A DNA stretch of 64,000 nt from Octopus vulgaris (GCA_951406725.2 OX597815.1:5704001-5768000); one strand, 5' to 3'; positions 22,558-33,229 are shown, counted from the first letter of the stretch. Notes: a model not told the origin generated them from the sequence alone. Numbers and translations are program-made.

Positions 22558-22687
22558 ATGGTGTTGATTAAGAGTTATGTCTATTGTGTGGTCCTTCTCA
22601 CAATTTCACTGGCAGTGCCCACAACTCCGGCATCGTTGTTTGACGGACTAATGCCAAAATTTCCATCAATGGATTCCATTTTTAACG
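22558..22687 (+). CDS. sHSP-like gene, coding exon 1 (signal peptide + N-terminal region)
   Basis: ATG in an AAAATGG context; hydrophobic [13 protein letters not shown] stretch ending in S-L-A; GT donor at 22688. Confidence 0.75.
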
Positions 22688-25600
22688 GTAACTCTATCTA
22701 TCTATCTATCTATTTTCTTTTTTTTCTTTTTTTTGCTCTTTTTTCCCTTTTACGATCCCTTTTGATCGAAAACCTACGCCACCTTTTCTTTTTTTTTTTC
22801 CTCCCCCAAAAGAAAAGCTCTACCTTGTAACTTGTCCCATCTGTGTGCAGCCCTGTATGGCCAATAAAGAAACCTTATCTATCTATCTATCTATCTATCT
22901 ATCTATCTATCTATCTATCTATCTATCTATCTATCTATCTATCTATCTATCTATCTATCTATCTATCTATCTATATCTATCTATCTATCTATCTATCTAT
23001 CTATCTATCTATCTATCTATCTATCTATCTATCTATCTATCTATCTATCTATCTATCTGTCTGTCTGTCTGTCTGTCTGTCTGTCTGCTTGTCTATATCT
23101 ATCTATCTGTCTATCTACCTGTCTGTCTGTCTGTCAATATTTATTTATCCACCTGTCTTTATCTATTTGTCTGTCTATATCTATAAACAATCTACCTTTC
23201 TTTCTTTACAATATTAATTGAAAATATTTTACACACACACACACACACACACAGAGTTTGAAAAGCCTTGGTGAGACTCAGAATAGAGTGTTACGTTTTT
23301 AAAAAAACAATATATAACATCCCGCTTGGTTATTGATTTTGTTTTTGATCCAGTTAATAATTGAGCGTGTGTGTGTGTGTGTGTGTGTAAAACAGTGAGT
23401 CAGCAGAATCGCTACAACGTTGTAAAAAAAATTCATTGGATAAGTTTTGAGTTCAAATTCCGCCGAGGTCAACTTTATTTTCAATTTTTTTTTTCGAGGT
23501 CGATAAAATATACTACCGGTTAAGAACTGGAGTTGACCTTATCAACAAACACCCACCCTCCCCCATAAAATTGCTGGCCTTGTGCCTAAATTAGAAACAG
23601 CATATTTTATCTTTTACTTGTTTCATTCATTAGATTGCGGCCATGCTGGGGCACCGCCTTGAAGAATTTTAGTCGAACGAATAGACACAAGTCCTTTTTT
23701 TTGTATTCTATTAATGCCTGGCACTTACTCTATAAGTCTTGTTTGCCGAACTACTAAGTTACGGGGACGTAGACACACTAACACCGGTTGTCAAGCGGTG
23801 GAGGGGAACAAGCACAAACGCAAAAATACACGCACACAGCTATACATCATATGTGTGTGTGTGTATGAGTATACATACATACATATGCATATATATATAT
23901 TCCAAATAATATATATATATATATATATATATATATATATATATATATATATATAAACAAGTAAATGGAATTAAACGCAGGTTTTATTCAAGTCTTTATA
24001 CTTCCGACATATGTTTCGAAGAAAACATTGGTATTATTCCGGAATGAATAAAATGATGTAAAACAATGCGATCTTCTCATCATCTTATTGGTATGCATAT
24101 TTTTTCCCCTGATGCGAAGATCGCATTGTTTTACATCCCATAGGCCTCCCCTTTGAGAAACACTGATTTAACCTAAATTTGAGACACTAGCAAAAGAAGA
24201 AATAAAATAGACTTTTTTCTATTCCAAGAAAAACGACTTTACAAATGCACGTTCCCACGGCTTTATCGATCGCATTCTCAACCTGGAATCGATTTTTGTA
24301 ATTTTTTCAAGACTTATACACGCCCTGAGACCGTCGGTATCTACATATCAAATTTAAGCACAATCGGATGGAGGATGCTCGAGATCCGAGAAGACACACA
24401 GACAGACAGAACAGATTTTATATATATATATATATATGGAGGAGGAGGAGACCCCTTTCGGTCATGACTGACCATGGGATTGTACCTAGAAAGTTACCCT
24501 CTGAGGCACAAGTCCGGGCAAGGTTGTTTGTGGAAGACCAGCAGTCGCCCATGTTACCGGCCTCCCCTCTCCATGCCACCAGTGTTATCCAAGGGAAAGG
24601 CAAAGGGGCCGATACAGCTTGGCACCAGTGATGTCGCAACCCATTTCTACAGCTGAGTGAACTGGAGCAATGTGAAATAAAGTGTCTTGCCCAAGAACAC
24701 AACACACAACTCGGTCTGGGAATCCAACTTACAACCTCATAATCGTAAGCTCGACGCTCTAACCACTGAGCCATGCACATTCACTATATATTTTTATGTG
24801 TGTGTGTGTGTGTGTGTGTTTGTCCCCCTCCCCGCCAAGGCTTGACAATCGGTTTGGTAAAAGTAACCGATAGAATAAATACTAGGCTTAAAATTAAACA
24901 CTAGGGCCAATTCATTCAACTAAAAAACCCTTCAAGGCGATGCCCCAGCATGGCCGCAGTCTAATGGCTGAAACAACAAGCGAAAGAGGAAAGGTCGCCT
25001 AATCACGGAACTAACAAAGAAAAACTGCAGAACAACACAAGTTGTGTTTTATTGTGGATCCGGATTACATAAGCTCTCTGCTGGCACACCAGATTAACAA
25101 TATTATCTAGATTAGTGAAGAACCCCAGTTAATCTTGTGGCAGGGTCCAAGGTTATGGTTCATCACAATTCTGTATTGTAAATCCGTGGTTGGGCTCCAG
25201 ACAAACTGGTTTTTACACAGTGATATATAAAAAAAAGAATAAATTTAAAATAATGGCCATCACATATTTTCCCTTTATTGGGAAAAATGTGGCTTACAGC
25301 TGTTTCCAGTGGACATTATAGGTGCATTACTGACAGGTTTACTCAATTGGTCTCTTGAATGATTTGAGGTAAACTGAACGACCTAAGAAAATTAATGCTA
25401 CTTTGGTCAGAGCCATTTTTGGTAATAACAAGCAGAGCACTGAAGGAATGGCTACAAGATGACGAAGGTAGAAGACGGAAGGATGCAATTAGAACAGAGG
25501 ACAGAGAAAGACAGGTTATATTTCTCAATCGATCAGTATTTATATCCTGGCTAAGAAGTGCATTCCTGACCTCTGCAATTGTTGTTGTTGCCATCCTTTT

Positions 25601-31600: not shown

Positions 31601-33229
31601 GTCCACGGACAGACAAACAAACACGAATGAAACAATACCTCCGCTTTAGCGAAGACGGGGGGAATAATACATGATTAATTCGAAACAATGTACATAAATG
31701 AACATTACATTTGACCAAACAGATATTTTACTCAATTGTGACAGAAACTGCAGTTCTGCAGTCAACACTTCAGATTGACAGCTGTACTAACATTTTGCAA
31801 AAACAGAAATAAAATAATTTAAGAAAATGTTTTATTTTTCACCATTGAAAGCCTTTATTCTTTGTAATTCTTTCATTTTAGTTTATACTAATTTAGTTTG
31901 GAATATTTCGGGAGGGTTCTTATGCCAATAATGAACACGCAGAAAGGCGGAGAGCTGGCAGAGTCGTTAGCACGCCGGGCGAAATGCTTTGCGGTATTTC
32001 GTCTGCCGTTTCGTTCTGAGTTCAAATTCCGCCGAGGTCGACTTTGCCTTTCATCCTTTCGGAGTCGATAAATTAAGTACCAGTTACGCACTGGGATCGA
32101 TATAATCGACTTAATCCGATTGTCTGTCCTTGTTTGTCCCCTCTATGTTTAGCCCCTTGTAGGCAATAAAGAAATAAGAAACGTTAGCACGCTGGGCGAA
32201 ATACTTAGCGGTATTATATCTGCCGCTACGTTCCGAGTTCAAATTCCGCCGTGGTCGACTTTGCCTTTCATCCTTTCGGGGTCGATAAATTAAGTACCAG
32301 TTGCGTACTGGGGTCGATCTAATCGACTCGCCCCCTTCCCCAAAATTTCTGGCCTTGTGCCTAGAGTAGAAAAGAATGACTCTTCCAACATACGACAAAA
32401 CTTATTTGTTGCATCTTGGGAGCACCGCCTTGAAGAATTTTCAGTTGAATAAATCGACCCCGGAATTATTATTTCATTATCATTTTTCTTTTTGCTAAGT
32501 CTTGTACTTATTCTATCGGTTCGTTTAGCCGAACCGCTAAGTAATAGAAACGCAATCACACCAACACCGGTGGTCAAACGGTGGTGGTGGGCAAACACAG
32601 ACACAAAGGCACACACACATGTAGATAAATAAATATACACACAAACACACACACATATATTTATATATATATGTATGTACGACGGGCTTCTTTCGGTTTC
32701 CGTTTACCAAATCTACTCACAAGGCTTTAATGGGCTTGAGGCTATAGTAGACGATATTCGCTCAAGGCGTCACAGAATGGGACTGAACCTGGAACAAAAT
32801 GGTTGGGAAGGGAACAGACACACCTAGAAATACTTATTTACTTTATATATATATTTTTTTTTTTTTCTTTTAACAGGAATACGAAACTACTTTCAAGATG
32901 GAACTCGAGCAAAATTCGTCCAAGTCGATAATGATACCTACGTTTGGAGACTTCAGATGAACCTAACCGGGTACAATATCTCAAGTTTAAACGCCACCCG
33001 CCAAGGGCAATATTTTCAACTCACTGGTAAGAAAACAAATGCTTTTAACAGAACCACATCGATAAGCATTGGTGAACTACTTCCAAAATTGGTCAACTTG
33101 GAAAAGATGACTGTTACTATCAGAAAGAACATGCTGACGGCCGAGGCCCCTGTTGAAAAATCTAAAGTCGAAGTAATCCCAATCAAAGTTAAACCCCCTG
33201 CGAACACAGCGCTGCAATACAGAAACTGA
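22558..33229 (+). CDS. Two-exon gene (22558-22687 + 32877-33229) for a 160-aa small heat-shock/alpha-crystallin-domain protein with a predicted signal peptide
   Basis: Phase-1 donor AACG|GTAACT (22687/22688) joins acceptor TTTTAACAG|GA (32876/32877). The 483-nt ORF reads [184 protein letters not shown] fits the ACD beta8-9 pattern (LP..VD...I.S.L..GVL.V.AP) and is followed by the IPI (IXI) motif. Confidence 0.8.
22745..22872 (+). mobile_element. Tx1-like LINE 3' UTR fragment within (TATC)n in intron 1 of the sHSP-like gene
   Basis: TTTACGATCCCTTTTGATCGAAAACCTAC...GCAGCCCTGT.TGGC.AATAAAGAAA shared with 17905-18023. Confidence 0.7.
24001..24140 (-). ncRNA. Hammerhead-like motif with a long stem II, plus an inverted partial copy (Penelope-type)
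   Basis: Minus strand UGAUGA-GAAGAUCGCAUUG...CAAUGUUUUCUUC-GAAAC-AUAU-GUC-GGAAG; + strand CCUGAUGCGAAGAUCGCAUUG at 24107; related partial copy at about 34043. Confidence 0.5.
25625..25965 (-). mobile_element. RTE-type LINE 5' UTR fragment
   Basis: CTCCTGCAACCAAGCTGGTGCCAAACG...CCTTTGGAC...GAGAG(A)GGAATCCTGACG..TGGGC resembles RTE 5' regions. Confidence 0.5.
26771..27750 (-). mobile_element. Degraded Penelope-like retroelement (RT + GIY-YIG endonuclease)
   Basis: [23 protein letters not shown]...YADD...FEIE...LSLLD (PLE RT) and [29 protein letters not shown] (GIY-YIG); frameshifted; degenerate hammerhead at 27885-27920. Confidence 0.85.
28034..28567 (+). mobile_element. Family-B SINE with an inverted family-A tail fragment nested in its TA tract
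   Basis: AGGCGCAGGAGTGGCT head to GAAACAAGTAAAAGAG tail; 28221-28330 is the reverse complement of about 603-715. Confidence 0.75.
28847..28894 (-). ncRNA. Minimal type-I hammerhead ribozyme motif (Penelope-type)
   Basis: GUCU-CUGAUGA-AGGCAUAU-ACAAA-AUAUCCCG-GAAAC-AGCU-GUA-AGAC; stem I GUCU/AGAC, palindromic stem III ACAGCUGU. Confidence 0.7.
29110..30025. repeat. Compound (TACA)n microsatellite with an internal 391-bp higher-order duplication
   Basis: Identical variant blocks offset by 391 bp (for example 29268 and 29659). Confidence 0.9.
30320..30618 (+). mobile_element. Non-autonomous Helitron
   Basis: Inserted between A and T, 5' TC, 3' hairpin CCCGAGCAACGCCGGG followed by CTAG. Confidence 0.85.
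30630..31665 (+). mobile_element. Helentron/HINE-like element split by an internal insertion
   Basis: AAACAAGAGCACTCAG...ACCTCCGCCAAGG start; AAAGTTTCATCCGAATCCATCC...ACAGACAAAC...ACCTCCGC end. Confidence 0.45.
30900..31110 (-). mobile_element. Ty3/Gypsy integrase C-terminal remnant
   Basis: [22 protein letters not shown], then after a frameshift [23 protein letters not shown]. Confidence 0.75.
32877..33229 (+). CDS. sHSP-like gene, coding exon 2 (alpha-crystallin domain + IXI tail)
   Basis: Long polypyrimidine tract then CAG at 32874-32876; open frame to TGA at 33227-33229; ACD motifs. Confidence 0.85.

Follow-up and report, generated by a model that had tools for sequence, protein, structure and literature searches.

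A small heat-shock protein of Octopus vulgaris with a predicted signal peptide and conserved N-glycosylation sequons

The stretch of DNA analysed here (the window) comprises 64,000 nucleotides of the Octopus vulgaris genome (GCA_951406725.2, OX597815.1:5704001-5768000; positions are counted from its first letter) and contains a two-exon gene for a 160-residue protein. By fold and homology this protein is a member of the superfamily of small heat-shock proteins (sHSPs), and it belongs neither to the canonical cytosolic metazoan type nor to the endoplasmic reticulum (ER) class of plants. Three features of it and its relatives are new: a signal-like start in all five full-length sequences, invariant sequons for N-glycosylation at N62, N82 and N101, and the loss of an arginine from the strand that usually forms the dimer. 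The octopus protein very likely enters the secretory pathway and is probably secreted in full. Its best reading, which we favour tentatively as regards both function and site of action, is that of a secreted, N-glycosylated, ATP-independent holdase.

The coding sequence starts with the ATG at 22558 and leaves exon 1 after 22687 through the donor ACG/GTAACT; the acceptor of the 10,189-bp phase-1 intron consists of a T-rich tract followed by TAACAG/ at 32876. Joined, the two coding parts (483 nt) yield a protein identical to NCBI CAI9716889.1 from Octopus vulgaris. An earlier reading of this DNA, made without database searches (hereafter the sequence-only reading), had proposed that the exons splice in frame across this 10.2-kb intron, and assembled contigs agree. 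Among 24 public runs, 20 contain at least half of the exon-2 words, and the junction was examined in four (X1, X3, X9 and X19, from at most four studies). Each of the four has one contig spanning the junction (796, 809, 697 and 701 letters, with equal depth on both exons), which follows exon 1 through 22685, has exactly one further letter and then follows exon 2 starting at 32876, matching the predicted splice; the letter itself is not displayed because the contig comparison masks 22686 onward as repeat. The contigs show 0-3 mismatches each to the window and behave like mature mRNA, though the type of the source runs is not on record. All four join exon 2 to the same upstream exon, and the alternative upstream exon that the sequence-only reading had named among its refuting cases was not seen. 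Their 5' ends lie at 22435, 22457, 22525 and 22525, with 22240-22434 covered by none of the four, and two of them stop at 33410 and 33413, 17-20 letters past the AATAAA. Because an in-frame TGA lies within the covered 5' untranslated region (UTR) and no ATG occurs upstream in 22400-22557, Met1 is the start, and no N-terminal extension hides the signal. Separately, the X3 contig carries a 19-letter loose 5' end at 22435 that is absent from the window (it might represent an upstream exon, allelic variation or an artefact of assembly), the X1 contig passes the first poly(A) signal and reaches a downstream repeat at 33486, and high-copy repeats resembling short interspersed nuclear elements lie on both sides of exon 2 (33457-33510 and 32700-32811).

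The orthologue from O. bimaculoides (XP_014775593.1), named 'SHSP domain-containing protein' in UniRef and 'uncharacterized' at NCBI, is 87% identical and does not differ over its first 30 residues. A search of 1.84 billion representative proteins returned six matches, with P0007, P0008 and P0010 as true relatives; P0013 was added by profile search and P0011 by cluster look-up. A 4767-residue bacterial Ig-repeat protein and a 3309-residue crinoid NACHT/LRR protein, which matched through repeats, were dropped. A third homologue search, covering lengths of 50-308 residues, revealed no new member, and none of the 17 pattern matches in prokaryote genomes or the 149 in metagenomes was confirmed as a relative. 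The family set holds eight sequences, five of them full-length (P0003, P0004, P0007, P0011 and P0013, representing three independent types), with P0005 and P0010 partial. The octopus group shares 26-36% identity over residues 62-147 with the distant one. The term 'lineage-specific' used in the sequence-only reading should be taken with caution, since the protein has relatives at about 30% identity. All ESM Atlas scores were below 0.9 and provide leads only, the nearest clusters (210-243 residues) being arthropod sHSP-like (0.84-0.87) or unnamed, with a plant class IV sHSP cluster at 0.80-0.81. P0008 derives from a long genomic contig, and the short start of this protein is possibly intronic: its N-terminus resembles a translated intron ending at the octopus phase-1 junction (at the Gly in G-I), in which case the position of the intron would be conserved.

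The divergent alpha-crystallin domain claimed in the sequence-only reading is upheld by the relatives and the predicted fold, though not by a Pfam match to the octopus protein itself. Each of the three distant relatives tested (P0007, P0008 and P0010) passes the 20.8-bit gathering cut-off of PF00011 (HSP20), with 23.2, 33.0 and 30.8 bits. All 14 matches of a family-profile search of the PDB were sHSPs, the best being Sip1 of C. elegans (E 8e-9); a single-protein phmmer search of the PDB gave chance matches only (best E 0.26). In the predicted octopus model the local confidence score pLDDT is about 75-87 over residues 61-140 and below 50 over residues 1-52. All 39 Foldseek rows shown for this model are sHSPs or alpha-crystallins (best E 1.6e-6), ranks 1-18 of VIA-align are sHSPs (best Z 11.1, root-mean-square deviation 3.5, 92 residues aligned), and the predicted model of P0013 gave the same outcome. 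The CS / p23 / NudC co-chaperone domain was rejected: it first appears at VIA-align rank 19 (Z 8.7), below the 18 sHSPs, and gave no profile match. On the strength of relatives and predicted fold, the assignment of the alpha-crystallin domain is secure. The protein also has the architecture of an sHSP, with an N-terminal domain, the alpha-crystallin domain and an IXI tail, and its mature mass of 15.9 kDa lies within the 12-43 kDa given for sHSP monomers (PMC8382682).

The N-terminus of the octopus protein reaches a Kyte-Doolittle 11-mer maximum of 2.85, compared with 1.31 in the remaining chain, and the hydrophobic N-terminal stretch recurs in each full-length relative (2.65-2.86 across the five sequences), well above the rest of each chain. 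The (-3,-1) rule makes cleavage at S-L-A/V plausible. A Pfam match of residues 1-21 to PsbI (E 0.12) reflects hydrophobicity only and was discarded. None of the eight C-termini carries a KDEL/HDEL-type retention signal, the octopus chain ending in ...ALQYRN, which makes secretion likely.

Like the missing KDEL-type end and the IPI motif, the five sequons of the sequence-only reading are present as described (Asn 62, 72, 77, 82 and 101), against a mean of 1.8 in shuffled sequences (P=0.019). Among five sequences compared over residues 62-147, in which the two groups are 28-36% identical, the Asn, Ser and Thr of sequons are invariant at 7/10 positions and all others at 11/76 (Fisher P=5e-4), and invariant Asn and Thr number 6/9 within sequons and 0/9 outside them (P=0.009), in statistics that treat columns as independent and draw on a small sample. 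At N62, N82 and N101 the sequons are invariant except for a variable middle residue, a sign of real glycosylation; selection for glycan attachment leaves a pattern of this kind. N-glycosylation is confined to the ER lumen. With the signal-like N-terminus, these three sequons and the IPI motif conserved across a small, deeply diverged family, and with relatives keeping signal and sequons together, the observation is now stronger than when it was first made from one sequence.

The self-association of the protein may also depart from that of its relatives. The loop preceding strand beta6+7 is three residues shorter than in Sip1, and the second arginine of Sip1, within F-T-R-Q-F-T-L-P of beta6+7, is replaced by Ile, Val or Tyr at position 108 in all eight sequences. 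This position corresponds to R120 of alphaB-crystallin, which bridges the canonical dimer. A homodimer prediction for residues 45-152 scored 0.49 (best of three controls, 0.16), with an agreement between runs of at least 97% of contacts and a partner pLDDT of at least 79. The mark used was reached by 21/30 homodimers and 0/23 monomers in a microbial benchmark and by 17/29 homodimers (animals 7/16) and 0/30 monomers in a eukaryote benchmark. The confident predicted interface comprises 81-88, 121-127 and 139-152, with I144 and I146 docked reciprocally between strands 81-88 and 121-127; beta6+7 is not named in it, which is no evidence that this strand makes no contact. The protein is thus predicted to dimerise by swapping IPI tails into the beta4/beta8 groove of its partner, and a glycan on N82 would lie at the rim of this groove, since N82 and T84 flank the docked tail. 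Complexes with the tail in the groove have been solved (alphaB and Hsp27 with C-terminal peptide), so the dimer may owe its pass to such structures being known to the predictor.

These features can be combined into a possible mechanism. The predicted 19-residue signal peptide would send the alpha-crystallin-domain protein into the ER, where the three conserved sites are likely to be N-glycosylated, and the protein, having no ER-retention signal, would then leave the cell. Outside, it would bind unfolding proteins as an ATP-independent holdase, presumably holding them, as other sHSPs do, by its groove and its N-terminal domain, which in the family consists of Phe, Pro and Ser to 33-49%. A bias of this type marks client-binding tails, both in sHSP N-terminal domains and in the tails of clusterin (PMC12527946); the parts by which sHSPs bind clients, namely this composition, the groove and the IXI motif, are retained. 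Glycans may keep the basic protein (mature isoelectric point, pI, 9.9) soluble. Self-association would come about as each IPI tail docks, as predicted, in the groove of the other chain, while a glycan on N101 and the shortened loop could weaken or reshape the usual beta6+7 dimer, so that assembly would rest mainly on IPI swapping. Expression would be driven by tissue and not by heat. A bolder form of this proposal is rather unlikely: a family of animal sHSPs dedicated to secretion and always N-glycosylated, an invertebrate counterpart of clusterin, that has abandoned the canonical beta6+7 dimer (N101 glycan, no Arg) for assembly by tail swapping, with the N82 glycan at the groove rim tuning access of tail and clients.

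Several observations weigh against a secreted holdase. The family set is small, two pairs of its eight sequences being near-identical, and the sequon statistics have the limits given above. PF00011 gives no score for the octopus protein (exon 1, exon 2 and the full proteins P0003, P0004 and P0005), so its HSP20 membership rests on relatives and fold; the protein has drifted away from the family profile. In alphaB-crystallin, loss of R120 damages chaperone function; with the corresponding dimer-strand arginine lost here, holdase activity may be lost as well. The dimer was modelled without glycans, including the one at the groove rim. No heat-shock element with at most one mismatch lies within 2 kb upstream (with at most two mismatches there are 2 in 658 bp, where the window rate predicts 3.5), and no consensus of the ER-stress elements ERSE or UPRE in about 2 kb upstream. 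The sequence-only reading had suggested a gland secretion and a look at gland proteomes. Neither CAI9716889.1 nor either of two short peptides occurs in the available part of one ink proteome supplement, where a control term occurs 913 times, or in that of one 2023 skin-mucus proteome supplement; the supplement look-ups covered PMC10142993, PMC10138644, PMC12607849 and PMC9068888. Glycopeptides would escape such a look-up, and the absence is weak evidence against those two secretions.

Some of these points would suit a secreted structural glycoprotein, in which the alpha-crystallin fold has been recruited, in the way that lenses recruited crystallins, to form a polymer built by IPI swapping, whose basic surface binds acidic mucins or matrix without chaperone activity. 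This is unlikely, though it is the strongest competitor of the holdase. Fast divergence, the lost arginine and a TATA promoter without heat-shock element fit it, as does the basic pI of all eight sequences (9.0-10.1), and the open-ended contacts between IPI and groove in the model could form chains. Against it, the mature octopus chain has no cysteine for cross-links, the N-terminal domain retains its sHSP-like composition, and the protein is absent from the available parts of the ink and mucus tables. Structural families tend to be expanded, whereas no paralogue or retrocopy of this gene was found within the 64-kb window, where it is single-copy, and one protein was found per named octopus species.

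Signal and sequons would suit any lumenal location equally well, and the protein might be an escort or resident chaperone that serves the ER, the Golgi or the secretory granules of cells with high secretory output, retained by oligomer size or client binding instead of KDEL. Such a counterpart of plant ER sHSPs (that class is documented in PMC9075518) appears rather improbable: no KDEL/HDEL-like end occurs in the family, the upstream region has no ERSE or UPRE consensus, and the 28-36% identity among relatives seems low for a housekeeping ER chaperone.

It is very improbable that the signal remains uncleaved as the anchor of a type II membrane protein with its glycosylated domain toward the lumen or cell surface. 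This arrangement has been proposed for AvHSP28.6 of the sea anemone Anemonia viridis, for which overlapping signal and transmembrane segments are predicted (PMC4175457), but the hydrophobic stretch, after which small residues stand at -3 and -1, is short for a membrane span, with about 12 residues in the octopus protein and about 10 in P0013. Least probable of all is that the exons are joined wrongly, or that the protein is an ordinary sHSP of cytosol or mitochondria whose N-terminus is hydrophobic by chance: the signal assignment rests on hydropathy and conservation, and annelid monomeric sHSPs are predicted to be nuclear, cytoplasmic or mitochondrial (PMC9075518), but the join is present in all four runs, signal-like stretch and sequons are conserved at about 30% identity, and an N-terminus with one Lys and no Arg is unlike a mitochondrial presequence.

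Compared with known systems, the octopus protein shares with metazoan sHSPs (Sip1, PDB 4ydz and 4ye0; alphaA- and alphaB-crystallin; HSPB1) its best profile and fold matches, the order of N-terminal domain, alpha-crystallin domain and IXI tail, and a short beta5-beta7 connection with no separate swapped beta6 strand in the model. It differs from them in its predicted signal peptide, its conserved sequons, its strongly basic character and its lack of a Pfam HSP20 score. Plant ER sHSPs end in a retention signal at the C-terminus and have a long beta6 loop of plant type, neither of which is present in the octopus protein; as its closest match in sequence comes from a nematode, the two are likely to be of independent origin. 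What the octopus protein is predicted to share with this class (class IV, e.g. HSP22.0) is entry of an sHSP into the secretory pathway by a signal peptide (PMC9075518).

The sequence-only reading states that metazoan sHSPs typically lack signal peptides; a predicted precedent from an animal is AvHSP28.6, which is likewise encoded by two exons, has a predicted N-terminal signal (residues 1-20) and was called the first such case by its authors (PMC4175457). In contrast to the octopus protein, AvHSP28.6 has 248 residues and a pI of 6.25, and its signal overlaps a predicted membrane span, so that it was interpreted as membrane-inserted; its authors nowhere use the word glycosylation (PMC4175457). 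AvHSP28.6 was not among the named matches of our homology searches. Clusterin, an abundant extracellular holdase described as a vertebrate protein, is secreted, N-glycosylated and ATP-independent and has hydrophobic, disordered tails similar in composition to sHSP N-terminal domains, properties that the octopus protein would share; it has an unrelated coiled-coil fold, and holdase activity is proven for clusterin and conjectural for the octopus protein (PMC12527946). An engineered secreted HSPB5-Fc provides a further precedent (PMC8204567).

Signal-bearing sHSPs have been reported in moths, and the arthropod clusters of the ESM Atlas may be of this kind. The available text of a silkworm sHSP survey (PMC2745388) does not mention signal peptides, and no signal-bearing sHSP appears in the available passages on tick, longhorn-beetle, dung-beetle and silkworm-haemocyte sHSPs. 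In full-text searches, with most subscription journals outside their scope, neither this gene nor a molluscan family of glycosylated secretory sHSPs was the subject of any paper, and accession searches of the full-text literature found none either; the available parts of PMC8914287, PMC11431876, PMC11555925 and PMC9570420 were also within the scope.

Table 1. Positions of the gene, its parts and other elements in the window.
Feature	Position	Strand	Remarks
TATA box (TATAAAA), likely core promoter	22392..22398	+	most distal contig 5' end at 22435
5' UTR of exon 1	22435..22557	+	in-frame stop TGA at 22528-22530; contig-covered
Exon 1, coding part	22558..22687	+	phase-1 donor; encodes signal peptide (predicted) and most of the N-terminal domain, which is rich in Phe, Pro and Ser
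Predicted signal peptide, residues 1-19	22558..22614	+	from hydropathy; same in O. bimaculoides
Intron	22688..32876	+	GT-AG, 10,189 bp; contains microsatellites and a reverse-transcriptase fragment of a long interspersed nuclear element (LINE)
Exon 2, coding part	32877..33229	+	residues 44-160 and stop
Alpha-crystallin domain	32903..33154	+	residues about 53-136; seven predicted beta strands
Sequon N62-D-T	32930..32938	+	kept in 6/6 sequences covering the site; middle residue D/S/G
Sequons N72-L-T and N77-I-S	32960..32983	+	partial conservation (3/8 and 5/8)
Sequon N82-A-T	32990..32998	+	strand beta4, rim of IXI-binding groove; 8/8; middle residue A/V
Sequon N101-R-T	33047..33055	+	start of strand beta6+7, after shortened loop; 8/8; middle residue R/K/Q
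C-terminal IPI (IXI) motif, residues 144-146	33176..33184	+	invariant 8/8; docks in partner groove in predicted dimer
3' UTR	33230..33413	+	AATAAA at 33388-33393; contig X1 continues to 33486
LINE reverse-transcriptase and endonuclease fragments	27278-27832, 34714-35205, 43462-43800	-, +, +	first inside the intron of the gene

Elsewhere in the window, about 21 kb downstream of the gene, two small ketosynthase-domain exons (53988-54415, plus strand; PF00109, E 1.3e-12), which include the active-site DTACSSS and are separated by a GT-AG intron, form part of a gene resembling those for fatty-acid synthase or animal polyketide synthase. An AT-rich satellite at 58573-59969 consists of about 27 copies of a 37-bp unit with 92% match, decays toward its 3' end and yields long spurious open reading frames.

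Standard annotation misses the octopus sHSP, which has no Pfam match and is 'uncharacterized' at NCBI. This small protein, whose mature form has no cysteine, is easy to express, and it offers a natural test of whether the beta6+7 dimer and its arginine are needed for chaperone function and of whether assembly is under the control of glycans at the beta4/beta8 groove. The sHSPs of animals are regarded as intracellular, and extracellular ones have rarely been described; if the reading as a secreted, glycosylated sHSP is true, the protein would show how an invertebrate protects its secreted proteins.

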